NCBI GenBank assembly: GCA_027923505.1
Contig: BROI01000014.1
Location: 62,001-126,000 of the forward strand
DNA length: 64,000 nucleotides
Direction of reading: 5' to 3'
Source: Mayamaea pseudoterrestris
Taxonomy: Eukaryota
Below the pieces are notes generated by a model. That model saw nothing but the letters and a program-made list of their open reading frames with translations. It was not told the DNA's origin and made no database searches. The translations under genes and the position numbers were made by a program. Of this stretch, positions 22,020 to 51,564 are shown in pieces (position 1 is the stretch's first letter; the number at the start of each line of letters is the position of its first letter).

Positions 22020-25000
22020 ATGTCCTCTGTCAATAATGCTCGAGATGATACGAACGAAGCAAAACTTGCTGCCAATCAACATGCGACGACAATCATCAAC
22101 GGCAACCAACATCAGCTCGAAACAATTTCCTCGTCATTTGCCGATGCACCAGGAGCCATGAATTACAATGCAAATAGTAGTAACAGTATATCCAATTTGA
22201 GCGACGTAGCAGTCACGTCAACCGGCTTTGACAAGTTCAGTAGAAGCGATGACGACGTATCGACCGACCAACAAGCCTTGTTTGCGGCTCGATTGTTTGG
22301 TGACGGCATTTTGGTTCGCAAAATAAAACGGAACGGCACGACTCATACACGCACCATCCGATGCATTCACGTGCTCATTGACGCTTCCTTCGCCGCCACA
22401 GTTCCAGTCGTCGCAAGCGGCGGAAGCAGCCCTGCCTCATCGAGTCGAAACACTCCGTCGCCAGCCAGCAGCACGACCAGTTCCATGAGTCACAGTTATT
22501 CCAAATCCAAAGGTCAGCCATGGCGACCGGTGCCAGCCAATACACCGTCCAGTATCATGGCATTGTCATGGAGCAAAACGTCCTCTCAGCAGCGGCTGCG
22601 ACGGAAATCTCCCAGTGACGATGGTTTGGTACCGCTGTCAGCCTTTGCGTTCATTCGCCTCGGCAAAACGACGGATCGAGCGCATAAGAATACTGCTCCG
22701 CCAAATCTCATTTTGAGTCTACAGACAAATCAGTCGAGAGATGAAATGAACCATTTGGGAGTGACTTGGCCTCCTAGTTTGGATATAGAAGCTCCGACGG
22801 TTGGCGATCGAGACAGCTTGGCCAAGGCTTTTTCTGAGTTTTTTCGTATTCCAATCATTTCCAAGGACCAACCACCACAGTCGGAAGAGTGTGGAGACGA
22901 TGGCTTGGTCGGGCCGCGGAGAAGAAGTCTTGGAAGTAGCGACGTTCACAGTTCCTCCGGAAAGCCACCAGCTCCTCCGCAGCGAGAAAGCAACAATAGC
23001 GCCAGCGGACAATCAAGGTCACGCAAAGGCAGTGTCGAGCATGCGGCGCAAAAGCTGCCACCTCAGCATGATAATTCATCCGATGCACTTGGTAGTGGCT
23101 CGTATCCTCCGCCTCTGCCGCCCTCGCATCAGCAGCAACCGTCGCTGCCAGCTGCATCATCTTACAATTCAGCCTCAACACGGCCAAATACTTCGTCACA
23201 AGGAGTCGTCATTTCGGTCGTTGACGGCGGACAGGATGGAAACAAGTCGGGCGGATCGGCTTCGGACATGTCGACCATTACAGGGCATGGGTTCGACCAA
23301 GAGCTTGTGGAAGAGTTGCATCAGGCACTCAACGAAATGCGATCAGAGCTGGAAGAATCGCGAGTTGAAGCCGCGCGAGCCGTCAAGGTGGCAGAGCAAG
23401 CCATTCAGAGTGCCGAGCGCAGCACGAGTGTGGAATGGCAAAATACAGTAACGCATAAAGCGGCGGAAGCGGCGGCTCAGGCGCAGAAGCGATCTGCCGA
23501 AGCAATGGCGAAGCAACGAATTGCTGAGGAGCGATTAGAGCAAGAAAAACTCAATGCAGCATTTTGGAAAAAGCAAGCTGAGATTGCAGAAGAAGAAGCA
23601 GGTGCATTGCAGACGAGAGCGGCGGCGGCGGAAATTCAACGTGCCACCATTGAACAACGTCTTGAAGGTGAGAGTAGAAAGTCGGCTGCTCTGCAAGACT
23701 TGCTACAGAAGCGACTTAGTTTGAGCGAAGGGATTCAGCGAAGCGCCTTGCAAGCCAGTTTGGAACGAAACAGAATACTTGAAATGGAAGCTGAACAGCT
23801 ACGACGTCAACTCGACAAGCACTTGGAGAATACAGAGAACGGCGAAGAGAAAGCTCCTTCCAGAAGGCGACTCAGTTTTAGTCGCAAACAGAAGAGTACT
23901 CCTGAGTCTCGGGTTTCATTGCTTTCCGGAAAGACAAACTCATCGTCGAGTCAGAATCTCTCAAACACGAATGGCACTTTGAACAACTCTATGCAGATTG
24001 CGAAGATAGCCGAAGAAGCAAGCTTTATTCGTGAGCAATTTGAATTGTTGCGACGCATGACATCGGATGAGCTCGGTCAAATACCTGTTGACTCACTACA
24101 ATGGAGTGAGCAAATGAAAGCAGCTCTTTGCTTTGCGCGTGGCGAGTCCGATCGACTGCGCAATAATCTTGCCTATGAATCTGCTTCACGCCGCCTTTTG
24201 CAGCACGAAGTTGCTGACCTTCGAGGGACAATTCGTGTTTTTTGTCAACCTCGACCCAGTTCTGCTGATGAAGTGTCTTTGCTTAGTATCCAGTCGCATG
24301 AAACGGTCACCTTGCATCGCGAGCGCATTCCTACAAGTGTCAATGATGAAACGATTGGAACACTGAGTTTTCAGTTTGATCGCGTCTTTTCTGCTAGTGC
24401 TACGTCAACCGACGTTTATCAGGAAATTGAGGAGGTTGCCCTTGGCGTTTTTGAAGGATACAACGTCTGCATCATGGGATACGGACCGTCCAACTATGCC
24501 GCTGAGTCGCTTTACGGGGATCTCCGATACAAGGACGCCACAGTTTGCATTGAAAGCCACGGCGTTCAGTCGCTGACGATAGAGAAACTATTCAATGTGA
24601 CGGAACATCGCCGCGATCGATACAGAGACTCGTTTTCGCTATCTATTGTGGAAGTGTACAACGAACGAATCGCTGACCTTCTCGCTGCCACCAAGAAAGG
24701 CGAAGAATGCGGGGAAACTATCGTGGCTGATGGCGGTGGACGCAAGAAGAAGAATGCTGCGGATGATGATACTTCAAAAGGGCCGACAAAGCTCGAGATT
24801 CGTACCAATGCCCATGGCGAGGTGGTGGTGCAAGGTTCGCTCTCGGTCAAGGTGAACGATTTTGACGATACGAGCGAGGTTTGGAAGGAAAGTATGCGCA
24901 ACCGACGAACACGACTGTTGGAGCAGGGCATTGATTTCAAAGAGTACGAGGCGTCTTCGCAAATAATCGCAACACTGAAGGTGAAGTCAATTAACGTTGC

Positions 25001-25427
25001 CACAGGACTGGGAAGTTTGGGCAAGATTCAGTTTGTGAATTTAGCAGGCGCTGATGTTGTCGCCCGGCAGACCTCCACAGTCGACTCGAAGGCAGAGCCA
25101 TCACTTCAGGAACTTACACAAAGTTTGTCTGGCGCCGCCAAGGACGTTTCTTGGAGGTTTGAAAATCGCTGGGCTAGTGTTTTTGGAGAAGTAATTGTCG
25201 CTCGATCGCAATATTCCAGAACTGTTCCGTACCGAAACTCCACCCTGACCCATCTGCTTTCCGACTGCCTCGACCATGATGCTAAAGTCGTTTTGCTCGC
25301 ATGCGTCTCGTCTGATGTAAAAGATGCGCAACAAACAGCAACGACCATGCGCCTGGCAACGCAAGCTCGCAGAATTTGGCTTGGCAAGGCGACGAAACAT
25401 ACACTCGAGGAACCTTTGAACAAGTAA
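22020..25427 (+). CDS. Kinesin-14-like protein: N-terminal PH-like domain, coiled coil, C-terminal motor-homology domain with degenerate nucleotide motifs
   Basis: DLRGTIRVFC neck, FQFDRVF, EGYNVCIMGYG, EVYNERIADLL, VPYRNSTLTHLLSDCL. Long coiled coil. PH-like segments GILVRKIKRNG...IRLGKTT...SLDIEA. Start taken at ATG 22020. Confidence 0.85.
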   Translation: MSSVNNARDDTNEAKLAANQHATTIINGNQHQLETISSSFADAPGAMNYNANSSNSISNLSDVAVTSTGFDKFSRSDDDVSTDQQALFAARLFGDGILVRKIKRNGTTHTRTIRCIHVLIDASFAATVPVVASGGSSPASSSRNTPSPASSTTSSMSHSYSKSKGQPWRPVPANTPSSIMALSWSKTSSQQRLRRKSPSDDGLVPLSAFAFIRLGKTTDRAHKNTAPPNLILSLQTNQSRDEMNHLGVTWPPSLDIEAPTVGDRDSLAKAFSEFFRIPIISKDQPPQSEECGDDGLVGPRRRSLGSSDVHSSSGKPPAPPQRESNNSASGQSRSRKGSVEHAAQKLPPQHDNSSDALGSGSYPPPLPPSHQQQPSLPAASSYNSASTRPNTSSQGVVISVVDGGQDGNKSGGSASDMSTITGHGFDQELVEELHQALNEMRSELEESRVEAARAVKVAEQAIQSAERSTSVEWQNTVTHKAAEAAAQAQKRSAEAMAKQRIAEERLEQEKLNAAFWKKQAEIAEEEAGALQTRAAAAEIQRATIEQRLEGESRKSAALQDLLQKRLSLSEGIQRSALQASLERNRILEMEAEQLRRQLDKHLENTENGEEKAPSRRRLSFSRKQKSTPESRVSLLSGKTNSSSSQNLSNTNGTLNNSMQIAKIAEEASFIREQFELLRRMTSDELGQIPVDSLQWSEQMKAALCFARGESDRLRNNLAYESASRRLLQHEVADLRGTIRVFCQPRPSSADEVSLLSIQSHETVTLHRERIPTSVNDETIGTLSFQFDRVFSASATSTDVYQEIEEVALGVFEGYNVCIMGYGPSNYAAESLYGDLRYKDATVCIESHGVQSLTIEKLFNVTEHRRDRYRDSFSLSIVEVYNERIADLLAATKKGEECGETIVADGGGRKKKNAADDDTSKGPTKLEIRTNAHGEVVVQGSLSVKVNDFDDTSEVWKESMRNRRTRLLEQGIDFKEYEASSQIIATLKVKSINVATGLGSLGKIQFVNLAGADVVARQTSTVDSKAEPSLQELTQSLSGAAKDVSWRFENRWASVFGEVIVARSQYSRTVPYRNSTLTHLLSDCLDHDAKVVLLACVSSDVKDAQQTATTMRLATQARRIWLGKATKHTLEEPLNK

Positions 25428-33300: not shown

Positions 33301-34012
33301 GGTAAGGTGCTACTTGCCTAGGATACAGACGGTTAGACTAACGAAATTGAGCGCGTAAAACATTTGCATAAGAGCGCCATGTTTTCAACGCTTAGCCTCA
33401 TATGTATGCAAGTGCGAACTTGATTGAGCCCTTGTCTGGATTTTTTGATGAATATGTACTTTGATCAAAATTAGAGCAGTATTATAATTTGGGCGAGCAG
33501 CTATGATTAGCCTGCAACAGAATTCTTAATGGCATGCAGCAAATCTGATTTGGCAACAACTTGTGGGTAGTTTAGTGAAGCTCTAGGATGCTTTGTTAGC
33601 CGCGAACAGAATCACAGAGCTTTTCGGTAGATTGCAACAATGTTACGAGTATCATACTTGTATGATACTGCAATCGCATCAATGGGCGAGCAAGTTTGGG
33701 TAGTGTGGGCGTTTATTGTCAATGGCCACAAACTATCGAAAAAACTGTACTGACACTCCGAGGACAATGACATCTTTTCCGGTCATTTCAGCTACTCCGT
33801 GCTAGGCTTAACTAGAACTTAGTCCGCTAATAAAAATTGCATCCCTCATGACGTCAGCATGACAATTGAATGTTCCCAGACGCTCGTCGGGGAACAGAGG
33901 GACGTCAGCAAATGCCTTCGTCGCGGTCGCCTCCCAAGCAGCCAGCCTCGAAACACTTCGAGCACATCGCACCATGACGAGACGAAACGACTCAACGATT
34001 ACGACTACCAAA

Positions 34013-37000
34013 ATGTTTTGGATTTTTGTTTGGATTCCAGTCTGCTTGGGCACAATTACTATCGTTAGATCTCAGCATCTAGACTGCCTTGTCGACGGCA
34101 AGAAACTTGCAAATTCTCGATGGAGTCTTCGACTGGGAAAGTGCTTCAATGGAAGTGACGGACAATTAAACGTACAGCCGAAAAGCTTCAGCGATAATCA
34201 CGCAACATTGACTTGGACGAGCACGACAACAGGCCTGCTCATACCAAAAGGAGGAAAGCTGTCGTTCGACTTGAGCTGTGCCCCGTTTGTCGTTGACATG
34301 GTAGCACACGGGGAAGAGTCGCTTGCACACTTCAACGACGGGACGAAAGCACTTTTCAATAGCAAAGTTGCTAATGGCACGATGCTCCAAATTGTCGTAA
34401 GCAGTGACAAAATTTTGAATGCCATCGCAGTTCCAGTAGTCCGTGACCAGCGCCACCTTTTATGCCAACGCTCGAGCACCATTTCGGTGCATGACGACGC
34501 CAACAATCTTTTGGAAATGCTTATGAACCCAATTGCCGATGGACCCTTACACACTTTAAGCGACGTGCCGACCGCATCTACGTCAAAAGCTTTAGAAATG
34601 TTGCCAGTAGTGGCGCCCAAGGTAAGTTGCGCATGCATTCATTGTCGGGTGTTTTGATTGGCGTGTCTACGGTAGCTGAGCAGATATGTCGCGTACGAAT
34701 GGTTTCCAGCTATTCTTGTGTGCTACCGACTTGGACTCGACGCATTTGCCAACAGGTAGTGCATAAAGGGCATGTCATGTGTACACCTTGCGCTGGCTCT
34801 GACGAGGCATTTGATGAATTTAGAAAATACGAGTCGAGTCTCACAAATTATGCTCCCAGACGCGACAATTTAAGAGGCTTCTTACACGTTATCTTTTGTC
34901 TATTCATTTTAGACACAGGGAGCGACAATAGCCATTGAGGAATATTCACTTGAAACATCATTGCGAGAGCACAAAATCCAAATCACGATGATCTACCATG
35001 ACGATTTCGAACGGCGATTTCAGATCAAGACAAACTACATGATCGTCGCTATAGACGACAATACGGCAAGTTTCTTTGATGGCTTTCGGCTAGTCGGCTC
35101 ACTGTATATAACCGGGCCCGTAAAGCTACGACTTATCGACGCAAGAATACTTGCAGTGCGTCAAGCTTCAGCGGACACGCCCTATACAATCAATGTGAGC
35201 ATGGAAGCTAGCGGCGAGCAACAACAATATAACTACGATTTAAGTCAGTCGTCACCACTTCAATCTAAAGACCGTGCTCTGCAACAGAACTGTCCTACTT
35301 CAACAGTGACTTGTGGACCTACAGGCAAGATCATTTGTTGGAATACCCAAGGAAAGTTCACACAAATTTGTGCATGCCCTACATGCCAATACACATTCCC
35401 TACGGATCCAAGTACATACACATGTGGTTACTGTGATACCAAAACACAGAAAAACACTTGCATACTAGACCCTCCAACAAATTGTACGTCCAATTCGACA
35501 ATGCTGGTGAGACGCTTGCTTGCCAAAACATCACTCACCCACGTAACCTTCTTGTAACAAGCCTGCAGCGCTAGTCCAACGGATGTAAGAGTGTGCCAGG
35601 CTTCAAATCAAGGTCAAGGTGGCGGGTCAACTCAAACCTTTTCTAGTAGTACACTTTGCGTAGCTGACTCTTCAAGAGGAAATAATGACTATTGTGGCTA
35701 TTGTTTTGGAACAGTAACTAAAGCACCAACAAAAGCACCAACAAAGACGCCAACAAAAAGGCCAACAAAAGCTCCAACAAAAGCTCCAACAAAAGCCCCA
35801 ACAAAAGCTCCAACAAAAGTTCCCACAAAAGCTCCTACTCCAGTAGTGGCACCAGTGGCAGCACCTATTGCAGCACCCGTTAAAGCTCCAACTAAAAGCC
35901 CCACCAAGGTAGACTAAACCGTTCATTGTTCCGCCTTTCTATACTTGCAACTTCCCTTATTTGTCTAAATTTCTCCAATATATTTCCATTTTTGGCACAG
36001 GCACCAACGAAGGCACCAAGTAAAGCTCCCACTAAGGTATATCTTTTCAGATCCTTGTTGTCATGTGACTTGCTTGTGGTCTCCCTTAGTTACTTATATC
36101 ATCTCGTTCTGATTGAATGTTGCACAGGCACCCACCAAGGCACCCACCAAAGCACCCACCAAAGCACCCACTAAAGGACCTACCAAGGCACCTACCAAGG
36201 CACCCACCAAGGCACCCACCAAGGCACCCACCAAGGCACCCACCAAGGCACCCACCAAGGCACCCACCAAAGCTCCCACCAAAGCTCCCACCAAGGCTCC
36301 CACCAAGGCACCCACCAAGGCACCCACCAAGGCACCCACCAAGGTACCTACCAAAGCTCCCACCAAAGCTCCCACCAAGGCACCCACCAAGGCACCCACT
36401 AAGGCACCCACCAAGGCACCCACTAAGGCACCCACCAAAGCTCCCACTAAGGTATGTCAAGGCAGGTCATTGTTGTAGCTTGACTTGCTCTTGGCTTTTC
36501 TTTCTCACAAAAACCATCCCCCATGGATTCAATTCTTGCACAGGCACCAAGCAAGGCCCCAACTAAAGCCCCAACAAAGGTATGTCCCAGCAAGATATTG
36601 TTGCAGCTTGACTTGTGCTTCACATCATCTGCTCACTTTTCTCACCACCTGTTTATTCCATGTTGCACAGGCACCAACTAAAGTGCCCACTAAGACACCT
36701 ACTAAGGTTCCAACAAAGGTACGCCCCAGCAGCACATTGTTGCAGGTTGACTTTTGCATTGCATCACTTGCTCACTTGTATCACCTGTTATTGATTGCTA
36801 TGTTGCACAGGCACCAACAAAGGCACCAACAAAGGCACCCACCAAGGCACCCACCAAGGCACCCACCAAGGCACCTACCAAGGCACCCACTAAGGCACCC
36901 ACCAAAGCTCCCACTAAGGTATGTCAAGGCAGGTCATTGTTGTAGCTTGACTTGCTCTTGGCTTTTCTTTCTCACAAAAACCATCCCCCATGGATTCAAT

Positions 37001-40000
37001 TCTTGCACAGGCACCAAGCAAGGCCCCAACTAAAGCCCCAACAAAGGTATGTCACAGCAAGATATTGTTGCAGCTTGACTTGTGCTTCACATCATCTGCT
37101 CACTTTTCTCACCACCTGTTTATTCCATGTTGCACAGGCACCAACTAAAGTGCCCACTAAGACACCTACTAAGGTTCCAACAAAGGTACGCCCCAGCAGC
37201 ACATTGTCGCAGGTTGACTTTTGCATTGCATCACTTGCTCACTTGTATCACCTGTTATTGATTGCTATGTTGCACAGGCACCAACAAAGGCACCCACCAA
37301 GGCACCCACCAAGGCACCCACTAAGGCACCCACCAAAGCTCCCACTAAGGTATGTCAAGGCAGGTCATTGTTGTAGCTTGACTTGCTCTTGGCTTTTCTT
37401 TCTCACAAAAACCATCCCCCATGGATTCAATTCTTGCACAGGCACCAAGCAAGGCCCCAACTAAAGCCCCAACAAAGGTGTGTCCCAGCAAGATATTGTT
37501 GCAGCTTGACTTGTGCTTCACATCATCTGCTCACTTTTCTCACCACCTGTTTATTCCATGTTGCACAGGCACCAACTAAAGTGCCCACTAAGACACCTAC
37601 TAAGGTTCCAACAAACGTACGCCCCAGCAGCACATTGTCGCAGGTTGACTTTTGCATTGCATCACTTGCTCACTTGTATCACCTGTTATTGATTCCTATG
37701 TTGCACAGGCACCAACAAAGGCACCCACCAAGGCACCCACCAAGGCACCCACTAAGGCACCCATCAAAGCTCCCACTAAGGTATGTCAAGGCAGGTCATT
37801 GTTGTAGCTTGACTTGCTCTTGGCTTTTCTTTCTCACAAAAACCATCCCCCATGGATTCAATTCTTGCACAGGCACCAAGCAAGGCCCCAACTAAAGCCC
37901 CAACAAAGGTATGTCACAGCAAGATATTGTTGCAGCTTGACTTGTGCTTCACATCATCTGCTCACTTTTCTCACCACCTGTTTATTCCATGTTGCACAGG
38001 CACCAACTAAAGCACCCACTAAAAGTCCAACTAAGGTACGCCCCTGCACCACCTTCTTTGCAGCTTGACTTGTGCTTCACATCATCTGCTCACTTTTCTC
38101 ACCACCTTTTTATTTCATGTTGCACAGACACCAACTAAAGTGCCTACTAAGACACCTACTAAGGTTCCAACAAAGGTACACCCAGCATCACATAGTTGCA
38201 GGTTGACTTTTGCATTGCATCACTTGCTCACTTGTATCATCTCTTATTGGTTCAATGTTGCACAGACACCTACCAAGGCACCCACCAAGGCACCTACCAA
38301 GGCACCCACCAAGGCACCCACCAAAGCTCCCACCAAGGCACCTACCAAGGCACCCACCAAGGCACCTACCAAGGCACCCACCAAGGCACCCACCAAAGCT
38401 CCCACTAAGGTATGTCAAGGCAGGTCATTGTTGTAACTTGACTTGCTCTTGGCTTTTCTTTCTCACAAAAACCATCCCCCATGGATTCAATTCTTGCACA
38501 GGCACCAAGCAAGGCCCCAACTAAAGCCCCAACAAAAGTATGTCCCAGCAAGATATTGTTGCAGCTTGACTTGCGCTTCACATCACTTGCTTACTTGTAT
38601 CATTCCCATTAATTTTGTGTTGCACAGGCACCAACTAAAGTTCCCACTATGATGCCCACCAAAGCTCCAACTAAGGTATGACACAGTTCACACATTGTTG
38701 CAGCTTGACTTTTGCTTCACGTCATCTGCTTACTTGTATCACTCGTGTTGCGCAGGCACCAAGCAAGTCACCCACCAAAGCTCCCACAATGGTATGCCCA
38801 GCTGCGCATTGTTTCAACTTGTCTTGCTCTTTTCCTCTTTTTCTCACATGTAAAATATTTACCTCATTTTGATTTTCCAGTCACCAACACGAAGGCCAAG
38901 CAGAACTCCTAGCCAGACACCAAGCAGGATGCCTTCACGCACTCCAAGCAGGACACCAAGCAGGACACCTTCGCGCACCCCTAGTAGAAGTCCAAGCCGT
39001 ACACCTTCCCGCACGCCAAGCAGAAGTCCAAGCACAACTCCTAGTCGTACACCTTCACGCACTCCGAGCAGAACACCAAGCAAGACTCCAAGCAGGACTC
39101 CTAGCCGTGCACCAAGCAGAACACCATCTAGCACTCCAAGCAGAACACCAAGCAGGACTCCAAGCCAAAGGCCAAGCAGGTCCCCCAGTCGCACACCTTC
39201 ACGCACTCCAAGCAGGATGCCAAGCAGAACGCCAAGCAGGAATCCAAGCAGGACTCCCAGCCAAACACCATCACGCACTCCAAGCAGATCTCCTAGCCAT
39301 ACACCAAGCAGGACACCCTCACGTACTCCAAGCATGACTCCAAGTAAAGCACCTTCACGTACCCCTAGTAGAACCCCGAGCCACACACCTTCACGCAATC
39401 CGAGCCAAACTCCAAGCAGGACTCCCAGCCTTACACCTTCAGGCACTCCAAGCACAACACCAAGCATCGCACCAAGCAAGACTCCCAGCCATATACCTTC
39501 ACGCACTCCAAGCAGAACACCAAGTCGGAGTCCTAGCCAAACACCAAGCAGGACACCTTCACATGCTCCAAGCGAGATGCCAAGCAGGACTCCCTCACAC
39601 CTCCCAAGCTATATACCTAGTAGGACTCCAAGCCGCACGCCAAGCAGGTCTCCTAGCCAAAAACCTTCACACCCTTCAAGTATACAACAAAGTAGTGCTC
39701 CAAGCCATTCACCTACAAATACTCCAAGCAGCACTCCTAGCCGCATACCAAGCAGGACACCTTCCCACAATCCTAGCAGGCAACCTTCCCCAACTCCAAG
39801 CATAACACCAAGCTTGTCCCCCTCTGTGACTCCCAGTTTGACTCCCAGCACTCACCCCAGCAGCTTGCCATCAAGTGATCCAAGTGATCTAAGTGCCAAG
39901 CCTAGTGAATCACCTAGCGCTGGACCTAGTCTCCTTCCCAGTGCCACACCAAGCTTGTCCCCCTCTGTGACTCCCAGTTTGACTCCCAGCACTCACCCCA

Positions 40001-43000
40001 GCAGCTTGCCATCAAATGTGCCATCAAGTGATCCAAGTGCCAAGCCTAGTGAATCACCTAGCGCTGGACCTAGTCTCCTTCCCAGTGCCACACCAAGCTT
40101 GTCCCCCTCTGTGACTCCCAGTTTGACTCCCAGCACTCACCCCAGCAGCTTGCCATCAAATGTGCCATCAAGTGATCCAAGTGCCAAGCCTAGTGAATCA
40201 CCTAGCGCTGGACCTAGTCTCCTTCCCAGTGCCACACCAAGCTTGTCCCCCTCTGTGACTCCCAGTTTGACTCCCAGCACTCACCCCAGCAGCTTGCCAT
40301 CAAATGTGCCATCAAGTGATCCAAGTGCCAAGCCTAGTGAATCACCTAGCGCTGGACCTAGTCTCCTTCCCAGTGCCACACCAAGCTTGTCCCCCTCTGT
40401 GACTCCCAGTTTGACTCCCAGCACTCACCCCAGCAGCTTGCCATCAAATGTGCCATCAAGTGATCCAAGTGCCAAGCCTAGTGAATCACCTAGCGCTGGA
40501 CCTAGTCTCCTTCCCAGTGCCACACCAAGCTTGTCCCCCTCTGTGACTCCCAGTTTGACTCCCAGCACTCACCCCAGCAGCTTGCCATCAAATGTGCCAT
40601 CAAGTGATCCAAGTGCCAAGCCTAGTGAATCACCTAGCGCTGGACCTAGTCTCCTTCCCAGTGCCACACCAAGCTTGTCCCCCTCTGTGACTCCCAGTTT
40701 GACTCCCAGCAGTTCCCCCAGCAGCTTGCCATCAAATGTGCCATCAAGTGATCCAAGTGCCAAGCCTAGTGAATCACCTAGCGCTGGACCTAGTCTCCTT
40801 CCCAGTGCCACACCAAGCTTGTCCCCCTCTGTGACTCCCAGTTTGACTCCCAGCACTCACCCCAGCAGCTTGCCATCAAATGTGCCATCAAGTGATCCAA
40901 GTGCCAAGCCTAGTGAATCACCTAGCGCTGGACCTAGTCTCCTTCCCAGTGCCACACCAAGCTTGTCCCCCTCTGTGACTCCCAGTTTGACTCCCAGCAC
41001 TCACCCCAGCAGCTTGCCATCAAATGTGCCATCAAGTGATCCAAGTGCCAAGCCTAGTGAATCACCTAGCGCTGGACCTAGTCTCCTTCCCAGTGCCACA
41101 CCAAGCTTGTCCCCCTCTGTGACTCCCAGTTTGACTCCCAGCACTCACCCCAGCAGCTTGCCATCAAATGTGCCATCAAGTGATCCAAGTGCCAAGCCTA
41201 GTGAATCACCTAGCGCTGGACCTAGTCTCCTTCCCAGTGCCACACCAAGCTTGTCCCCCTCTGTGACTCCCAGTTTGACTCCCAGCACTCACCCCAGCAG
41301 CTTGCCATCAAATGTGCCATCAAGTGATCCAAGTGCCAAGCCTAGTGAATCACCTAGCGCTGGACCTAGTCTCCTTCCCAGTGCCACACCAAGCTTGTCC
41401 CCCTCTGTGACTCCCAGTTTGACTCCCAGCACTCACCCCAGCAGCTTGCCATCAAATGTGCCATCAAGTGATCCAAGTGCCAAGCCTAGTGAATCACCTA
41501 GCGCTGGACCTAGTCTCCTTCCCAGTGCCACACCAAGCTTGTCCCCCTCTGTGACTCCCAGTTTGACTCCCAGCACTCACCCCAGCAGCTTGCCATCAAA
41601 TGTGCCATCAAGTGATCCAAGTGCCAAGCCTAGTGAATCACCTAGCGCTGGACCTAGTCTCCTTCCCAGTGCCACACCAAGCTTGTCCCCCTCTGTGACT
41701 CCCAGTTTGACTCCCAGCACTCACCCCAGCAGCTTGTCTGTCCTCCAAGTGCCTGCTGTTTGTCCCAGCACTCACCCCAGCAGCTTGCCATCAAATGTGC
41801 CATCAAGTGATCCAAGTGCCAAGCCTAGTGAATCACCTAGCGCTGGACCTAGTCTCCTTCCCAGTGCCACACCAAGCTTGTCCCCCTCTGTGACTCCCAG
41901 TTTGACTCCCAGCACTCACCCCAGCAGCTTGCCATCAAATGTGCCATCAAGTGGTCCAAGTGCCAAGCCTAGTGAATCACCTAGCGCTGGACCTAGTCTC
42001 CTTCCCAGTGCCACACCAAGCTTGTCCCCCTCTGTGACTCCCAGTTTGACTCCCAGCACTCACCCCAGCAGCTTGCCATCAAATGTGCCATCAAGTGATC
42101 CAAGTGCCAAGCCTAGTGAATCACCTAGCGCTGGACCTAGTCTCCTTCCCAGTGCCACACCAAGCTTGTCCCCCTCTGTGACTCCCAGTTTGACTCCCAG
42201 CACTCACCCCAGCAGCTTGCCATCAAATGTGCCATCAAGTGATCCAAGTGCCAAGCCTAGTGAATCACCTAGCGCTGGACCTAGTCTCCTTCCCAGTGCC
42301 ACACCAAGCTTGTCCCCCTCTGTGACTCCCAGTTTGACTCCCAGCACTCACCCCAGCAGCTTGCCATCAAATGTGCCATCAAGTGATCCAAGTGCCAAGC
42401 CTAGTGAATCACCTAGCGCTGGACCTAGTCTCCTTCCCAGTGCCACACCAAGCTTGTCCCCCTCTGTGACTCCCAGTTTGACTCCCAGCACTCACCCCAG
42501 CAGCTTGCCATCAAATGTGCCATCAAGTGATCCAAGTGCCAAGCCTAGTGAATCACCTAGCGCTGGACCTAGTCTCCTTCCCAGTGCCACACCAAGCTTG
42601 TCCCCCTCTGTGACTCCCAGTTTGACTCCCAGCACTCACCCCAGCAGCTTGCCATCAAATGTGCCATCAAGTGATCCAAGTGCCAAGCCTAGTGAATCAC
42701 CTAGCGCTGGACCTAGTCTCCTTCCCAGTGCCACACCAAGCTTGTCCCCCTCTGTGACTCCCAGTTTGACTCCCAGCACTCACCCCAGCAGCTTGCCATC
42801 AAATGTGCCATCAAGTGATCCAAGTGCCAAGCCTAGTGAATCACCTAGCGCTGGACCTAGTCTCCTTCCCAGTGCCACACCAAGCTTGTCCCCCTCTGTG
42901 ACTCCCAGCACTCACCCCAGCAGCTTGCCATCAAATGTGCCATCAAGTGATCCAAGTGCCAAGCCTAGTGAATCACCTAGCGCTGGACCTAGTCTCCTTC

Positions 43001-46000
43001 CCAGTGCCACACCAAGCTTGTCCCCCTCTGTGACTCCCAGTTTGACTCCCAGCACTCACCCCAGCAGCTTGCCATCAAATGTGCCATCAAGTGATCCAAG
43101 TGCCAAGCCTAGTGAATCACCTAGCGCTGGACCTAGTCTCCTTCCCAGTGCCACACCAAGCTTGTCCCCCTCTGTGACTCCCAGTTTGACTCCCAGCACT
43201 CACCCCAGCAGCTTGCCATCAAATGTGCCATCAAGTGATCCAAGTGCCAAGCCTAGTGAATCACCTAGCGCTGGACCTAGTCTCCTTCCCAGTGCCACAC
43301 CAAGCTTGTCCCCCTCTGTGACTCCCAGTTTGACTCCCAGCACTCACCCCAGCAGCTTGCCATCAAATGTGCCATCAAGTGATCCAAGTGCCAAGCCTAG
43401 TGAATCACCTAGCGCTGGACCTAGTCTCCTTCCCAGTGCCACACCAAGCTTGCCCCCCTCTGTGACTCCCAGTTTGACTCCCAGCACTCACCCCAGCAGC
43501 TTGCCATCAAATGTGCCATCAAGTGATCCAAGTGCCAAGCCTAGTGAATCACCTAGCGCTGGACCTAGTCTCCTTCCCAGTGCCACACCAAGCTTGTCCC
43601 CCTCTGTGACTCCCAGTTTGACTCCCAGCACTCACCCCAGCAGCTTGCCATCAAATGTGCCATCAAGTGATCCAAGTGCCAAGCCTAGTGAATCACCTAG
43701 CGCTGGACCTAGTCTCCTTCCCAGTGCCACACCAAGCTTGTCCCCCTCTGTGACTCCCAGTTTGACTCCCAGCACTCACCCCAGCAGCTTGCCATCAAAT
43801 GTGCCATCAAGTGATCCAAGTGCCAAGCCTAGTGAATCACCTAGCGCTGGACCTAGTCTCCTTCCCAGTGCCACACCAAGCTTGTCCCCCTCTGTGACTC
43901 CCAGTTTGACTCCCAGCACTCACCCCAGCAGCTTGCCATCAAATGTGCCATCAAGTGATCCAAGTGCCAAGCCTAGTGAATCACCTAGCGCTGGACCTAG
44001 TCTCCTTCCCAGTGCCACACCAAGCTTGTCCCCCTCTGTGACTCCCAGTTTGACTCCCAGCACTCACCCCAGCAGCTTGCCATCAAATGTGCCATCAAGT
44101 GATCCAAGTGCCAAGCCTAGTGCATCACCTAGCGCTGGACCTAGTCTCCTTCCCAGTGCCACACCAAGCTTGTCCCCCTCTGTGACTCCCAGTTTGACTC
44201 CCAGCACTCACCCCAGCAGCTTGCCATCAAATGTGCCATCAAGTGATCCAAGTGCCAAGCCTAGTGAATCACCTAGCGCTGGACCTAGTCTCCTTCCCAG
44301 TGCCACACCAAGCTTGTCCCCCTCTGTGACTCCCAGTTTGACTCCCAGCACTCACCCCAGCAGCTTGCCATCAAATGTGCCATCAAGTGATCCAAGTGCC
44401 AAGCCTAGTGCATCACCTAGCGCTGGACCTAGTCTCCTTCCCAGTGCCACACCAAGCTTGTCCCCCTCTGTGACTCCCAGTTTGACTCCCAGCACTCACC
44501 CCAGCAGCTTGCCATCAAATGTGCCATCAAGTGATCCAAGTGCCAAGCCTAGTGAATCACCTAGCGCTGGACCTAGTCTCCTTCCCAGTGCCACACCAAG
44601 CTTGTCCCCCTCTGTGACTCCCAGTTTGACTCCCAGCACTCACCCCAGCAGCTTGCCATCAAATGTGCCATCAAGTGATCCAAGTGCCAAGCCTAGTGAA
44701 TCACCTAGCGCTGGACCTAGTCTCCTTCCCAGTGCCACACCAAGCTTGTCCCCCTCTGTGACTCCCAGTTTGACTCCCAGCACTCACCCCAGCAGCTTGC
44801 CATCAAATGTGCCATCAAGTGATCCAAGTGCCAAGCCTAGTGAATCACCTAGCGCTGGACCTAGTCTCCTTCCCAGTGCCACACCAAGCTTGTCCCCCTC
44901 TGTGACTCCCAGTTTGACTCCCAGCACTCACCCCAGCAGCTTGCCATCAAATGTGCCATCAAGTGATCCAAGTGCCAAGCCTAGTGAATCACCTAGCGCT
45001 GGACCTAGTCTCCTTCCCAGTGCCACACCAAGCTTGTCCCCCTCTGTGACTCCCAGTTTGACTCCCAGCACTCACCCCAGCAGCTTGCCATCAAATGTGC
45101 CATCAAGTGATCCAAGTGCCAAGCCTAGTGAATCACCTAGCGCTGGACCTAGTCTCCTTCCCAGTGCCACACCAAGCTTGTCCCCCTCTGTGACTCCCAG
45201 TTTGACTCCCAGCACTCACCCCAGCAGCTTGCCATCAAATGTGCCATCAAGTGATCCAAGTGCCAAGCCTAGTGAATCACCTAGCGCTGGACCTAGTCTC
45301 CTTCCCAGTGCCACACCAAGCTTGTCCCCCTCTGTGACTCCCAGTTTGACTCCCAGCACTCACCCCAGCAGCTTGCCATCAAATGTGCCATCAAGTGATC
45401 CAAGTGCCAAGCCTAGTGAATCACCTAGCGCTGGACCTAAGTCTCCTTCCCAGTGCCACACCAAGCTTGTCCCCCTCTGTGACTCCCAGTTTGACTCCCA
45501 GCACTCACCCCAGCAGCTTGCCATCAAATGTGCCATCAAGTGATCCAAGTGCCAAGCCTAGTGAATCACCTAGCGCTGGACCTAGTCTCCTTCCCAGTGC
45601 CACACCAAGCTTGTCCCCCTCTGTGATCTCCAGTTTGCCTCCCAGCACTCACCCCAGCAGCTTGCCATCAAATGTGCCATCAAGTGATCCAAGTGCCAAG
45701 CCTAGTGAATCACCTAGCGCTGGACCTAGTCTCCTTCCCAGTGCCACACCAAGCTTGTCCCCCTCTGTGACTCCCAGTTTGACTCCCAGCACTCACCCCA
45801 GCAGCTTGCCATCAAATGTGCCATCAAGTGATCCAAGTGCCAAGCCTAGTGAATCACCTAGCGCTGGACCTAGTCTCCTTCCCAGTGCCACACCAAGCTT
45901 GTCCCCCTCTGTGACTCCCAGTTTGACTCCCAGCACTCACCCCAGCAGCTTGCCATCAAATGTGCCATCAAGTGATCCAAGTGCCAAGCCTAGTGCATCA

Positions 46001-49000
46001 CCTAGCGCTGGACCTAGTCTCCTGCCCCAGTGCCACACCAAGCTTGCCCCTCTGTGACTCCCAGTTTGACTCCCAGCACTCACCCCAGCAGCTTGCCATC
46101 AAATGTGCCATCAAGTGATCCAAGTGCCAAGCCTAGTGAATCACCTAGCGCTGGACCTAGTCTCCTTCCCAGTGCCACACCAAGCTTGTCCCCCTCTGTG
46201 ACTCCCAGTTTGACTCCCAGCACTCACCCCAGCAGCTTGCCATCAAATGTGCCATCAAGTGATCCAAGTGCCAAGCCTAGTGAATCACCTAGCGCTGGAC
46301 CTAGTCTCCTTCCCAGTGCCACACCAAGCTTGTCCCCCTCTGTGACTCCCAGTTTGACTCCCAGCACTCACCCCAGCAGCTTGCCATCAAATGTGCCATC
46401 AAGTGATCCAAGTGCCAAGCCTAGTGAATCACCTAGCGCTGGACCTAGTCTCCTTCCCAGTGCCACACCAAGCTTTGTCCCCTTTGTGACTCCCAGTTTG
46501 ACTCCCAGCACTCACCCCAGCAGCTTGCCATCAAATGTGCCATCAAGTGATCCAAGTGCCAAGCCTAGTGCATCACCTAGCGCTGGACCTAGTCTCCTTC
46601 CCAGTGCCACACCAAGCTTGTCCCCCTCTGTGACTCCCAGTTTGACTCCCAGCACTCACCCCAGCAGCTTGCCATCAAATGTGCCATCAAGTGATCCAAG
46701 TGCCAAGCCTAGTGCATCACCTAGCACTGGAGCTATTTCTCCTTTCCAGTGCACCACCAAGCTTGTCCCCCTCTGTGACTCCCAGTTTGACTCCCAGCAC
46801 TCACCCCAGCAGCTTGCCATCAAATGTGCCATCAAGTGATCCAAGTGCCAAGCCTAGTGAATCACCTAGCGCTGGACCTAGTCTCCTTCCCAGTGCCACA
46901 CCAAGCTTGTCCCCCTCTGTGACTCCCAGTTTGACTCCCAGCACTCACCCCAGCAGCTTGCCATCAAATGTGCCATCAAATGTGCCAAGCCAAGTGAATC
47001 ACCTAGCGCTGGACCTAGTCTCCTTCCCAGTGCCACACCAAGCTTGTCCCCCTCTGTGACTCCCAGTTTGACTCCCAGCACTCACCCCAGCAGCTTGCCA
47101 TCAAATGTGCCATCAAGTGATCCAAGTGCCAAGCCTAGTGAATCACCTAGCGCTGTGTCCTGGCCAGTCTCCTAGTCTCCCAGTGCCACACCAAGCTTGT
47201 CCCCCTCTGTGACTCCCAGTTTGACTCCCAGCACTCACCCCAGCAGCTTGCCATCAAATGTGCCATCAAGTGATCCAAGTGCCAAGCCTAGTGCAATCAC
47301 CTAGGCGCTGGACCCAGTCTCCTTCCCAGTGCCACACCAAGCTTGTCCCCCTCTGTGACTCCCAGTTTGACTCCCAGCACTCACCCCAGCAGCTTGCCAT
47401 CAAATGTGCCATCAAGTGATCCAAGTGCCAAGCCTAGTGAATCACCTAGCGCTGGACCTAGTCTCCTTCCCAGTGCCACACCAAGCTTGTCCCCCTCTGT
47501 GACTCCCAGTTTGACTCCCAGCACTCACCCCAGCAGCTTGCCATCAAATGTGCCATCAAGTGATCCAAGTGCCAAGCCTAGTGAATCACCTAGCGCTGGA
47601 CCTAGTCTCCTTCCCAGTGCCACATCAAGCTTGTCCCCCTCTGTGACTCCCAGTTTGACTCCCAGCACTCACCCCAGCAGCTTGCCATCAATTGTGCCAT
47701 CAAGTGATCCAAGCGTCAAGCCCAGTGAATCACCTAGCGCTGGATCTAGTGTCCTTCCGAGTGCCACACCAAGCGTGTCACCCTCTGTGACTCCCAGTTT
47801 GACTCCCAGCACTCACCCCAGCAGCTTGCCATCAAATGTGCCATCAAGTGATCCAAATGCCAAGCCTAGTGCATCATCTGGCGCTGGACCCAGTCTCCTT
47901 CCCAGTGCCACACCAAGCTTGTCCCCCTATGTGACTCCCAGTTTGACTCCCAGCACTCACCCCAGCAGCTTGCCATCAAATGTGCCATCAAGTGATCCAA
48001 GTGCCAAGCCTAGTGAATCACCTAGCGCTGGACCTAGTCTCCTTCCCAGTGCCACACCAAGCTTGTCCCCCTCTGTGACTCCCAGTTTGACTCCCATCAC
48101 TCACCCCAGCAGCTTGCCATCAAATGTGCCATCAAGTGACCCCAGTGCCAAGCCTAGTGAATCACCTAGCGCCGGACCAATTGTCCTTTTCAGTGCTGCA
48201 CCAAGTTTGTCCCCCTCTGTGACTCCCAGTTTGACTCCCAGCACTCACCCCAGCAGCTTGCCATCGAATGTGCCATCAAGTGATCCAAGTGCCAAGCCTA
48301 ATGAATCACCTAGCGCTGGACCTAGTCTCCTTGCCTGAAGCTTGTCCCCCTCTGTGACTCCCAGTTTGACTCCCAGCACTCACCCCAGCAGCTTGCCATC
48401 AAATGTGCCATCAAGTGATCCAAGTGCCAAGCCCAGTGAATCACCTAGCGCTGGACCTAGCGTCCTTCCCAGTGCCACACCAAGCGTGTCACCCTCTGTG
48501 ACTCCCAGTTTGACTCCCAACACTCACCCCAGCAGCTTGCCATCAAATGTGCCATCAAGTGACCCCAGTGCCAAGCCTAGTGAATCACCTAGCGCCGGAC
48601 CAATTGTCCTTCTCAGTGCTGCACCAAGTTTGTCACCTTCTGTGACTCCCAGTTTGACTCTAAGCACTCACCCCAGCAGCTTGCCATCAAATGTGCCGTC
48701 AAGTGCATCAAGTGACACGAGTGTCAAGCCCAGTGAATCACTTAGTAATGGACCTAGTCTCCTTCCCAGTGCAGCACCAAGCTTGTCACCTTCCATGACT
48801 CAAAGTTTGACTCCCAGCACTCACCCCAGCAGCTTGCTATCAAGTGTGCCATCAAGTGACCCAAGCAGCAAGCCCAGTGCCTCACCTAGCACTGGACCTA
48901 GTCTCCTTCCCAGCGTCGCACCAAGCTTGTCACCCTCTGTGACTCCCAGTTTGACTCCCAGCACCCAACCCAGCAGCTTGCCAGTGACTGTTGTGCCAAT

Positions 49001-50423
49001 TACCTTGTCTGAAGAACCTAGTGCTTTGCTGTTTCCTACTCCAACTTTGTTAACATCATTTCCAAGTACTTTTTTGAATTCTTCACCAAGCATCCAATCT
49101 AGCACCACACCTTCCTTTGCTCCAATCTCTCAACAAATGCTTATTTTGCCTACACACCTCCCAAAAGATTCTTTTACACCTTCCTTTGCTCCAATCTCAC
49201 AACAAATGCTTATTTTGCCTACACACCTCCCAAAAAATTCATTTACACCTTCCAGCATGATTGAAAAACCTGTGAAGGCCATGATGCGGTTGAATATGAA
49301 AATGATGCGCATGCGGATGCCATTGGGAATGATGCAAACACCAACACAGATGCATATGCATATGCCCACCAGTCGGCCTGCTATTGGTACCAACATTCAT
49401 ATAAAAGGAAAAGGTTTTCCGGTCACTTCCAAAAACGGTAACGTGACTGGCAAAGTTAAAGGCTCCAAAACAAAATCAAACAAAGGTCTGCCTTTGCACA
49501 ATGCTGCCAAGGGAATATTGTATCAACAAACTGAAGCAAAGGGATCAAAGCGTACCTCAACCATTTCTAAATCCAATTGGAGCAAAATGAAACATATTAA
49601 TAAGGTGACGGCAGAAAACTCTAGTAGTAAGGGACAGAATAATTCAAAAATGGTGGCGGGAAAGCTGTCATCTAGTGGCAAGGGGCTAGGTATGTCTAGC
49701 AAAAAGTCAAAGCATATCACGTCGAAGAACAAAATGAGAGGGAAGGGACAGAACAGAAGTAGCAAGGGATTTAAAGCTTCAAAAAGCAAGAACACCAACA
49801 AACCAAAGGCTCAAGTGAAGGAAAGGCCACAAAAATCAAAAGTAATGAGCAAAAATGGCAGGAGTGCACTAATGTCGCAAAATAGAGACAATAAAGACAC
49901 CAAACCCAAGAAGAACTCAAGCCAGCAGCTTGGATTTGCAAATGCGTTTGATTCACCAAACGCTGCTACAGATAGTGCACTAATTCCGGTCACCCAAAGC
50001 TCCACTGGAGCATCCCACCAAGGTGTACACATCACCAGTTCCAAATTCTCCAAGCATAAACACTCAAAAATGCCTTCACTGCGCATGATCGACTCCAGTT
50101 TGAACCGGAACTGGCCTGAAACTGCGGATATTGATGGTCTAGGCGTGGCGAGAGCCGGAATCTTAGAAAGTGTTTCCGAAATGGAGTTCTTGCCAATTAC
50201 AACACAAACTCACTTGAAGCATGGCAGTGGCATCAACAAGTGGATGGAACCTTACGTTCCTCTTCTTGTGATTGGCATGGTGGGGCTTTTATTATGCTGT
50301 CTATGCTGCCTATGGGTATACTGCATCATTTGTTGTCGACAAAGAAAGGAAGATGACAACCACACAGAAGGAGAGGAGTTTACTCTTAATTTTATGAACA
50401 GAACATCATCAGAAATAGATTGA
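34013..50423 (+). CDS. Giant type-I membrane mucin-like protein (~4,800 aa, 22 exons): signal peptide, globular and Cys-rich N-terminus, (APTK)n, (SRTP)n, 48-aa repeats, Lys-rich region, TM helix
   Basis: Signal-like MFWIFVWIPVCLGTITIVRS. Introns 34622-34912 and 35484-35561, then 19 phase-0 introns within 35909-38880. Final exon 38881-50423 ends with TM YVPLLVIGMVGLLLCCLCCLWVYCIICC-RQRKE. Frame breaks at ~45440-47340 and a TGA at 48336 lie inside the repeat array. Confidence 0.72.
35909..38880 (+). repeat. Tandem intron-exon cassette array: 18 xPTK exons and 19 homologous 80-92-nt introns
   Basis: Junctions are CAG|(G/A)CACC...|GT. Intron type GTATGTCAAGGCAGG...TTCTTGCACAG recurs at 36452, 36919, 37350, 37781 and 38410. 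Confidence 0.9.
38881..39800 (+). repeat. Degenerate 12-bp coding repeat, (TPSR)n
   Basis: Translation PSRTPSQTPSRMPSRT..., with varied codon usage. Confidence 0.9.
39805..48980 (+). repeat. 144-bp coding minisatellite, ~63 copies (TPSLSPSVTPSLTPSTHPSSLPSNVPSSDPSAKPSESPSAGPSLLPSA)
   Basis: Near-identical sequence lines recur every 720 bp (5 x 144). The unit is 12 xPSx tetrapeptides. Copies diverge toward the 3' end. Confidence 0.95.
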
Positions 50424-51564
50424 ATTTGTGCCATTACAATATGTTCTAAAATTGTATGTTTTAACATTGGTTTGATGAATCTATGTGCATATTTTAGGTT
50501 AAACCTATCTGGAGTACTCCAAGAAAGCATCCCCCTATGTTACATACTTCTTTTGGAGTTGGTGAACTCCTGCCTTGCGTAAAGTATAACCATCTTCAAC
50601 CATAATATAGTCTGCAGTGCTTTTTAACGTCACTCAGCCCACATATCTATGGCTTTTTCAATCAGCCCATACTCATTTATACAATAATGAAACGCTCTGA
50701 GTGCCAGCGTGATCAGTACCTTGAGACTTGAGCTTGGCAGTGCTTGCGTGCGTGAAGCATGCAAAAGGCTTAGCTCGTAAAGGTATTGTAGAACCTTTGA
50801 TCCCACCACCTCCTCGCCTCGCGAACGTGTCATTTACCACTGAGACATTGCTGTCGGAAGCGCCGATTGATAAAGCGGCGTGAAAGCGCAACATGCACCA
50901 CACCCGCCGAGCCGCATCATCACGATGTGCATAGTCGATACTCGTAGTTTGGCGCGCAACACTGTTATAACCCAACACTCCGGCGCTATTAATAAAACAC
51001 GGCATCGCTTACCAATAGCAGCATTCCTGATTCTGACACATTACAAGAAGGATAAAGAGCGCGTTGCAGTGCTTGCTTCTTGCCTCCCTCCAACTCGTCA
51101 TGCATCATGGCATGCAACACTCTCTTTTCAGGTGACGGCCGATCAATGTCCAGGATCAATCTTCTAAACCAATCATTGCAAACGTTTCGTGTTTCATCTT
51201 CGCTTGACATGCAGCAACTCGAAAAAACGATAACTTGTGCTTTTGAGGTGAACTCGCCAACGGCACATGCCATACATCGCGAGAAACGAAGGTGCCGAGC
51301 TCGCCCAACGTATGATGGATGCATGTCGCTACTCCAACGTTGGCTCGATCAATTAACGAAACACTCGTTGACGACTGCCGCGTGCGCCATGGCGATTTGA
51401 GCCATGCGTCTGCGCCTCGCCGACACTTGCATGGGCCAAGGTTTCGATATTTACATGTGACAGGAGCATACTTCGCCCGATGATCATTATTAGCTTGCGA
51501 AGCAAATGCAAGCACACACAAACGACAAGGTTGAAAAAGTTTGAAACGATATTGCAGTTGCACC

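Follow-up and report, generated by a model that had tools for sequence, protein, structure and literature searches.

An array of 18 short xPTK exons in a putative surface-mucin gene of the diatom Mayamaea pseudoterrestris: probable origin by tandem amplification of exon-intron cassettes

Repeat-exon arrays are known from the 54-bp exons of collagen, and the iterated exon-intron modules of silk genes are reportedly the subject of a study by Hayashi and Lewis in 2000. In titin, the differential splicing of PEVK exons is documented, with exon inclusion setting the length of an extensible spacer. The near-identical introns of silk genes imply that modules of exon plus intron were duplicated in tandem or have evolved in concert (PMC3563967), the number of PEVK exons in titin varies through duplication and loss (PMC6469411), and the leucine-rich repeat (LRR) exons of brown algae owe their expansion to the duplication or shuffling of exons and are reported to be alternatively spliced (PMC11378527). 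In the present study, we describe an array of short exons encoding xPTK tetrapeptides in a 64,000-nt stretch of DNA from the diatom Mayamaea pseudoterrestris (GenBank assembly GCA_027923505.1, contig BROI01000014.1, positions 62,001 to 126,000 of the forward strand), which is hereafter called the window and numbered from its first letter. We consider it probable that this array was built by the tandem amplification of exon-intron cassettes, and that its introns have to be removed by constitutive splicing.

A mechanical parse of 35400-39200 yielded 18 in-frame xPxK blocks within 35909-38880, which total 1,248 nt or 104 units, and reproduced to the base the exon lengths listed in the original prediction, namely, 36, 324, 36, 48, 108, 36, 48, 72, 36, 48, 72, 36, 36, 48, 144, 36, 48, and 36 nt from 5' to 3'. 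The length of each of the 18 exons is divisible by 3 and by 12 and phase 0 is kept throughout, as had been claimed. The accompanying statement that only APTK-, VPTK-, TPTK-, and APSK-type units are present applies to 96 of the 104 units (APTK 75, VPTK 8, APSK 7, and TPTK 6), but not to the remaining 8, which comprise 2 SPTK and 1 each of GPTK, VPTN, APIK, VPTM, MPTK, and APTM. Thirteen of the 18 exons have 51 nt or less, and GC content is 0.561 in the array exons and 0.43 in the array introns, the mean of the window being 0.505.

The 19 gaps between the blocks all start with GT and end with CAG, in agreement with the earlier description, and have lengths of 80, 89, 90 (n = 2), 91 (n = 5), and 92 nt (n = 10), with a sum of 1,724 nt. 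Their 5' ends read GTATG, GTACG, GTACA, GTGTG, GTATA, or GTAGA. A branch-point-like yUnAy motif is expected shortly 5' of the 3' splice site, according to a consensus that was not derived from this diatom; the CTCAC/CTTAC motif that had been ascribed to most introns was recovered as CTYAC in 17 of the 19, with the A being located 23-36 nt from the 3' end, while i01 and i02 are without it. The lengths of 17 of the 19 introns are not multiples of 3 (non-3n), and the excision of all 19 together with two introns upstream of the array results in a single frame that begins with the ATG at 34013 and stays open for 3,145 codons, up to 45543. Judged from these signals, the 19 segments are most likely ordinary short U2-type (GT-AG) introns, 17 of the junctions being predicted. 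Introns occur at a density of 19 per 2,972 bp in the array, whereas the first 1.9 kb of the gene hold 2 introns and no intron interrupts the open frame over at least 6.6 kb past the array; the adjacent genes in the window were seen as long unbroken open reading frames (ORFs). An Rfam search of 33500-39500 at E<=1 returned no matches, and RNAalifold applied to 10 distinct introns yielded no pairs and no conserved structure.

The elements of the array are listed below; exons were delimited by the parse, and introns by splice sites and the intron alignment, unless other evidence is named, and A, B, and C denote the intron classes described after the list.

35909-36000, + strand: intron i01, 92 nt, a copy that is old and divergent and shares 39-54% identity with the rest (joint 35906>35999 in a contig of sequencing run X3, cut +2; intron alignment)
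36001-36036, + strand: exon e01, 36 nt, APTK APSK APTK (parse; flanked by both joints in the X3 contig)
36037-36127, + strand: intron i02, 91 nt, likewise old and divergent (46-64%) (joint 36034>36126 in the same X3 contig, cut +2; intron alignment)
36128-36451, + strand: exon e02, 324 nt, 27 units; the five long exons of variable length start with this one, and an A intron comes after each (parse; PF04886)
36452-36543, + strand: intron i03, 92 nt, class A
36544-36579, + strand: exon e03, 36 nt, APSK APTK APTK
36580-36670, + strand: intron i04, 91 nt, class B
36671-36718, + strand: exon e04, 48 nt, APTK VPTK TPTK VPTK
36719-36810, + strand: intron i05, 92 nt, class C
36811-36918, + strand: exon e05, 108 nt, 9 x APTK
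36919-37010, + strand: intron i06, 92 nt, class A
37011-37046, + strand: exon e06, 36 nt
37047-37137, + strand: intron i07, 91 nt, class B
37138-37185, + strand: exon e07, 48 nt
37186-37277, + strand: intron i08, 92 nt, class C
37278-37349, + strand: exon e08, 72 nt, 6 x APTK
37350-37441, + strand: intron i09, 92 nt, class A
37442-37477, + strand: exon e09, 36 nt
37478-37568, + strand: intron i10, 91 nt, class B, starting with GTGTGT in place of GTATGT (splice sites, cassette comparison)
37569-37616, + strand: exon e10, 48 nt, last unit VPTN, AAC/GT and not AAG/GT at its end (parse, cassette comparison)
37617-37708, + strand: intron i11, 92 nt, class C
37709-37780, + strand: exon e11, 72 nt, with APIK among its units
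37781-37872, + strand: intron i12, 92 nt, class A
37873-37908, + strand: exon e12, 36 nt
37909-37999, + strand: intron i13, 91 nt, class B, same sequence as i07
38000-38035, + strand: exon e13, 36 nt, APTK APTK SPTK
38036-38127, + strand: intron i14, 92 nt, mosaic, the first ~20 nt C-like and the rest B-like (87-88% to B) (intron alignment)
38128-38175, + strand: exon e14, 48 nt, TPTK VPTK TPTK VPTK
38176-38265, + strand: intron i15, 90 nt (3n), C-like (89-90%), no in-frame stop
38266-38409, + strand: exon e15, 144 nt, 12 units (parse; PF04886)
38410-38501, + strand: intron i16, 92 nt, class A (99%)
38502-38537, + strand: exon e16, 36 nt, 3' end AAA/GT
38538-38627, + strand: intron i17, 90 nt (3n), with an in-frame stop, B-like (82-84%)
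38628-38675, + strand: exon e17, 48 nt, APTK VPTM MPTK APTK
38676-38755, + strand: intron i18, 80 nt, B-like (70-72%), 13-nt alignment gap
38756-38791, + strand: exon e18, 36 nt, APSK SPTK APTM
38792-38880, + strand: intron i19, 89 nt, divergent (46-62%), TTCCAG end, boundary to the xPSR repeats (splice sites, alignment)

All 19 introns align with one another (blastn-short) and are homologous. Class A comprises i03, i06, i09, i12, and i16 (99-100% identity), class B i04, i07, i10, and i13 (98-100%), and class C i05, i08, i11, and i15 (89-99%), whereas identity between the classes is 61-77%; therefore, the description of these introns as cloned is apt within each class only. Introns i01, i02, i18, and i19 appear from their sequences to be older, divergent copies, and in i14 and i17 two classes are combined into a mosaic, which indicates recombination between intron classes. 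The elements follow one another in a fixed order, in which a long exon, an A intron, a 36-nt exon (APSK APTK APTK), a B intron, a 48-nt exon (APTK VPTK TPTK VPTK), and a C intron form one cassette. Tandem Repeats Finder detected two higher-order periods that run across exons and introns, one of 467 bp with 2.1 copies and one of 431 bp with 2.8 copies, each with 97% matches, and older, shorter periods of 139 bp (80%) and 128 bp (90%), which correspond to an intron together with a small exon. Among three 407-nt cassette cores, differences are confined to 4-6 sites, and the segment consisting of the A intron, 36-nt exon, and B intron is equal in cassettes 2 and 4 at 219 of 219 positions. Among the long exons, only the number of 12-nt units varies (27, 9, 6, 6, and 12), as expected from slippage in a 12-nt repeat, the period of which was found in 27.2 copies in the 324-nt exon by the same program.

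Cassette 3 differs from its sister cassettes in two ways that weaken splice sites: i10 begins with GTGTGT at 37478 where the sisters have a GTATGT donor, and e10 ends with AAC (Asn) at 37614-37616, preceding GTACGC, where the sisters end with AAG (Lys).

A family of homologous introns that are nearly uniform in length and all inserted at one site of the 12-nt unit may also be attributed to an introner, namely, a mobile intron-generating element of ~91 nt with a preference for the target AAG/GCACC and many independent insertions, and introners are known from stramenopiles including the diatom Thalassiosira oceanica (PMC12130899). However, each intron class moves with its own flanking exons in the order A-36-B-48-C, and the repeat period with 97% matches spans exon plus intron, which fits segmental copying over insertion. 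Furthermore, none of the 109 blastn-short matches of the 19 introns against the 64-kb window were located outside 35880-38900, and a degenerate 22-nt intron core had 17 matches in the window, all of which fell within the array, versus 0.01 expected from shuffles. In metagenome contigs, a scan with the 22-mer core found 6 loci, none of which was intron-like in its context, and a search for orthologous loci by alignment pattern gave 54 pattern matches, with none being confirmed, in a collection from which this organism may be absent. Based on these results, we regard an introner origin as very unlikely, and as the least probable of the explanations considered herein.

The intronisation of the coding repeat was also considered as a source of the introns and was rejected, because the local scores between introns and the coding 12-mer were reached by 10-131 of 200 shuffles.

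The amplification of cassettes, which we favor, may be outlined as follows. A single ancestral intron inside a 12-nt (xPTK) coding repeat would have been copied along with the flanking repeat units, most likely by unequal recombination or by replication slippage, with the copies kept in step with the 12-nt repeat. In early rounds, units of ~128-139 bp, consisting of one intron and a 36- or 48-nt exon, would have been duplicated, and the copies may then have diverged into the intron classes A, B, and C, each with exons typical of it. The whole three-exon/three-intron cassette (431-467 bp) would have been duplicated in more recent rounds, or through gene conversion that is still going on, giving rise to the four to five near-identical cassettes. 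All introns are most likely removed constitutively, via intron definition. We infer both the duplication mechanism and the constitutive splicing of the 17 array introns for which no joint was seen. Every array intron is located at the same point of the 12-nt unit, after AAG and before GCA or ACA. Unequal recombination or slippage would find its homology in the 12-nt repeats on either side, which would also hold each event in register, and exons that are whole 12-nt units in phase 0 are a by-product of this origin. The near-identity of the recent copies similarly reflects youth or gene conversion and not constraint.

Four public sequencing runs of one study, designated X1-X4, none of which is recorded as RNA, provided contigs that were placed on 33500-39300. 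The contigs of X1 and X2 pass uncut through introns, as expected of genomic DNA, whereas joints with GT..AG ends were found in X3 and X4. The joint 34619>34911 (291 nt; cut +2) is present in contigs of both X3 (side 181) and X4 (side 76), the joint 35483>35562 (78 nt) in an X4 contig (side 255), and one X3 contig carries the joints 35906>35999 and 36034>36126, which after a two-letter shift are exactly i01 and i02 with the 36-nt exon between them. Joints were, thus, observed at 4 of the 21 introns of the gene; X3 and X4 are without cover across ~36216-38737, which leaves the other 17 array introns uncovered. The parts of the gene around the array, including the upstream introns, are listed below.

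34013-34621, + strand: exon 1, with ATG, a hydrophobic signal-peptide-like N-terminus (34013-34075), and the first half of an orphan N-terminal domain (ORF; aligns with database proteins P0001, P0002, and P0004)
34622-34912, + strand: intron, 291 nt, AAG/GTAAGT...TTTTAG (joints in X3 and X4)
34913-35483, + strand: exon 2, the other half of the N-terminal domain, plus the beginning of the Cys-rich part (phmmer relatives, alignments)
35484-35561, + strand: intron, 78 nt, ATT/GTACGT...AACAAG (joint in X4)
35562-35908, + strand: exon 3, end of the Cys-rich domain (…DYCGYC) and then an intron-free first xPTK block (35723-35830, 35885-35908) (parse, PF04886)
38881-45543, + strand: large intron-free exon, xPSR repeats and then 144-nt (48-aa) Pro/Ser-rich repeats, stop at 45541-45543 (ORF, repeat finding)
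45544-50423, + strand: further 144-nt repeats, in which the frame is lost through small indels and at one in-frame stop; a Lys-rich stretch and the C-terminus follow; presumed to be continuous with the preceding part (ORF reading)
50259-50336, + strand: hydrophobic 26-residue stretch (putative membrane anchor), then a 28-residue tail and stop (read from the sequence)

Two further observations were made in X3. One contig diverges from the reference at 35775, and its loose end rematches from 35836, making it 60 nt or five xPTK units shorter; this is either a variant in the repeat length of the first PTK block between samples or the result of a k-mer collapse in the contig. Another contig reads from exon 1 into the 291-nt intron (34607-34861), while a second X3 contig splices this intron out, and the read-through may represent an unspliced precursor, intron retention, or DNA carry-over.

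The original prediction regarded the array as a device by which splicing tunes the length and charge of an extracellular stalk. Exon skipping or the use of in-frame internal AAG/GT sites would adjust the PT/K spacer, both in length and in charge, by increments of 4 aa, and intron retention would lead to truncation; we consider this unlikely. Its arithmetic is sound, in that all 18 exons are 3n and in phase 0 and any subset of them may be skipped without a frameshift. Eleven internal AARGT sites inside the array exons could act as alternative donors, cassette 3 has weakened sites (GTGTGT at 37478, AAC/GT at 37616), and an intron core of ~20 nt is conserved above its flanks. Moreover, exon skipping and intron retention both occur in P. 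tricornutum, affecting 1,099 and 1,341 genes, respectively, in one time course (PMC5859163), and the PEVK exons of titin offer a precedent in principle (PMC6469411). On the other hand, the symmetry of the exons is wholly accounted for by in-register duplication, and, thus, provides no evidence of selection for exon skipping. The exon products are nearly identical, so that skipping would alter length alone, and the near-identity of the copies points to recent duplication or conversion and not to long-term conservation. Introns of 80-92 nt around exons of 36-48 nt suggest splicing by intron definition, under which exon skipping is uncommon. No skipped or retained isoform of the array was seen, at a near-zero coverage that could hardly have shown one.

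Regarding intron retention, the same prediction held that a retained non-3n intron would release a short soluble form without the membrane anchor. The retention of any one of 18 of the 19 introns does introduce a premature stop, with a truncated product of 511-951 aa; however, a soluble form presupposes that the transcript escapes decay. In the case of i15 (38176-38265, 90 nt), the frame stays open and 30 residues are added. If the array were nevertheless a splicing-set regulator, for which our analysis leaves only a small chance, the stand-off of the N-terminal domain and the cationicity of the stalk would be adjusted, as by the PEVK exons of titin, through interchangeable xPTK exons of 12-48 residues, and the 20-nt core would be regulatory. 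A unicellular alga would then regulate the splicing of an exon array in a structural protein, and differential splicing, if present, would make the locus a simple microbial system for the setting of protein length by splicing.

Apart from the splice sites, no part of the introns is better conserved than the ~20-nt core mentioned above (introns within 36469-38829): in an alignment of ten diverged representatives, columns 18-38, of the type ATTGTTGCAGCTTGACTTG, had a conservation of 0.83, versus 0.63-0.68 in the flanks. The first half of this core resembles the 3' end of the introns themselves (ATGTTGCACAG), and the core holds a second yUnAy-like motif, TTGAC.

Several points weigh against an origin by cassette amplification with constitutive splicing. 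The core may owe its conservation to a role other than basic splicing, or simply to gene conversion that acted unevenly. The absence of intron copies elsewhere applies to the 64-kb window, and other genes of the genome may carry copies. Removal of i01 and i02 rests on one X3 contig with a depth of 2.5, sides of 36 letters, and the flag 'between: not known', and, with joints for only 2 of the 19 array introns, the removal of the other 17 is a prediction from the sequence. Short-read contigs break within the array, and the cassette copy number rests on the assembly. In the 3' part of the gene, the 144-nt repeats include units that are not multiples of 3, at 45316 (+1), 45893 (-1), 46612 (+1), 46901 (-7), 47038 (+9), and 47191 (+2), and stops are present at 45541-45543 and, in frame, at 48336-48338; these frame breaks make a decaying gene or a locally error-prone assembly possible.

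These frame breaks and stops in the same gene, along with the failure of short-read contigs to bridge the array, also favor the reading that the array is a non-working feature, either part of a decaying pseudogene or a cassette number generated by the misassembly of a repetitive region. Against it, the frame is intact over 3,145 codons through 21 introns, splice sites are intact in all 19 array introns, X3 and X4 contigs show the spliced 5' part of the gene, and several array segments are reproduced by X1 and X2 contigs with no differing letters. We assign a low probability to this reading. The frame breaks between 45316 and 48338 could be assembly errors in a difficult repeat, real decay, or unrecognized small introns.

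The protein encoded by the host gene begins with the signal-peptide-like stretch and a putative all-beta domain of ~470 residues, the C-terminal part of which is Cys-rich (34013-35722). Exon 2 has four relatives among 1.84 billion representative proteins (phmmer, E 6e-33 to 2e-15), all of which are annotated as 'hypothetical', and this domain is, from its sequence, a member of a very small orphan family of four clusters. No database member of the family (P0001-P0007) extends beyond DYCG[YT]W, where the diatom protein passes into its repeats. Pfam contained no family for exon 1, exon 1 (203 aa) had no match when compared with longer proteins, exon 2 had no usable match in the ESM Atlas, and the C-terminal 469 aa had no database match. 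An AlphaFold2 model of the closest relative, P0001, based on an 8-row alignment consisted mostly of strands, with a mean pLDDT of 48, and is too uncertain for use.

The PT repeat family PF04886, with a gathering cut-off of 26.2 bits, was matched by exon 3 (31.9 bits), the 324-nt exon (81.1), and the 144-nt exon (41.1). In its spliced form, the xPTK region has 479 residues with 120 Pro, 115 Thr, 114 Lys, and 97 Ala, Lys accounting for ~24%; it would form an extended cationic spacer, consistent with the disordered PT repeat of Pfam, and is probably O-glycosylated. The region is followed by ~300 residues of xPSR repeats and by several dozen Pro/Ser-rich repeats of 48 residues, 41 units of which were counted at exactly 144 nt. 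The switch from xPTK to xPSR, with Arg for Lys and Ser for Thr, occurs directly after the last array intron, and the xPSR region (38881-39800) is without any intron and had no Pfam family. With the stop at 45543 and the frame breaks up to 48338 between them, the array and the putative membrane anchor are presumed to be linked. In analogy to diatom surface and adhesive glycoproteins rich in Pro, Thr, and Ser (bioRxiv 10.1101/2023.03.06.531300), the host protein would be a giant, heavily O-glycosylated surface mucin that is secreted or membrane-anchored.

The next ORF downstream (51535-54006) encodes a long Pro/Thr/Ser/Ala-rich protein with a strongly Lys-rich tail, and the ORF after it carries DUF7467 (PF24269, E 5e-10), in a region extending up to 54822. 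This is possibly a cluster of surface-protein genes. Elsewhere in the window, a kinesin ORF lies at 24150-25427; among its listed relatives (at least 120), the four with a named organism all come from diatoms, one from Epithemia and three from Thalassiosira, and the best identity is 49%.

If cassette amplification is the correct explanation, this locus represents a case in which the number of introns in one gene went from one to 19 by segmental copying, without the need for a transposon, and one that may be described as clean and datable. A 12-nt coding repeat imposes a common phase on the introns copied with it, so that symmetric exon arrays may arise without selection for alternative splicing, and caution is needed before such arrays are taken as regulatory devices. 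A literature search found no paper containing 'APTKAPTK' and no description of such an exon-intron array in a diatom; these searches were narrow and are no proof that the array is unpublished.

Among known systems, silk modules are built on a much larger scale than the diatom array, with its exons of 36-324 nt and introns of ~91 nt. The diatom array also differs from silk genes in its unicellular host and in having three intron classes in a fixed higher-order cassette, and resembles the spider silk genes Nephila Flag and Argiope MaSp2 in that nearly identical introns are present within one gene for a repetitive extracellular or structural protein (PMC3563967). Titin PEVK likewise has many short, tandemly duplicated exons for a Pro/Lys-rich disordered spacer (PMC6469411), and the diatom exons are also in tandem and in phase and encode a Pro/Lys-rich disordered segment (PF04886); however, there is no sequence relation, the animal introns are long, and the diatom motif xPTK is without Glu or Val. 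The brown-algal ROCO/LRR genes, also from stramenopiles, have arrays of short exons in equal phase (72-bp, phase-2) that correspond to whole protein repeats, but these code for folded LRR units under diversifying selection, whereas the diatom array encodes low-complexity PT repeats with almost no diversity (PMC11378527).

The micro-exon genes (MEGs) of Schistosoma similarly encode secreted proteins, with very short symmetric exons forming the bulk of their coding sequence, and protein variation by exon skipping has been proposed for them; their introns are long (up to 5 kbp) and their exons are not copies of one another, whereas the diatom introns are homologous and ~91 nt in length (PMC10526429). 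The array does not conform to this type, making up 1,248 nt of at least 9.4 kb of coding sequence, with introns of 80-92 nt. Introners share with the array near-identical intron families of uniform length, but are dispersed in unrelated genes, while the diatom copies all lie within one 3-kb array, where the exons were duplicated along with them (PMC12130899); no dispersal in unrelated genes was found within the 64 kb. With respect to the protein, the mucin-like diatom glycoproteins CaFAP1, CaTrailin4, and Ca5609, which are rich in Pro, Thr, and Ser, likewise combine a signal peptide (putative in the host protein) and Cys-rich parts with very long Pro/Thr/Ser repeats, and they and the host protein alike would be heavily O-glycosylated (bioRxiv 10.1101/2023.03.06.531300). 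No common domain, no CAA domain, and no Pfam family except for the PT repeat was found in the comparison with these proteins, and the xPTK repeat of the host differs from them in its ~24% Lys (114/479). Exon-intron amplification of this kind is already known elsewhere, and the array in M. pseudoterrestris adds another example.

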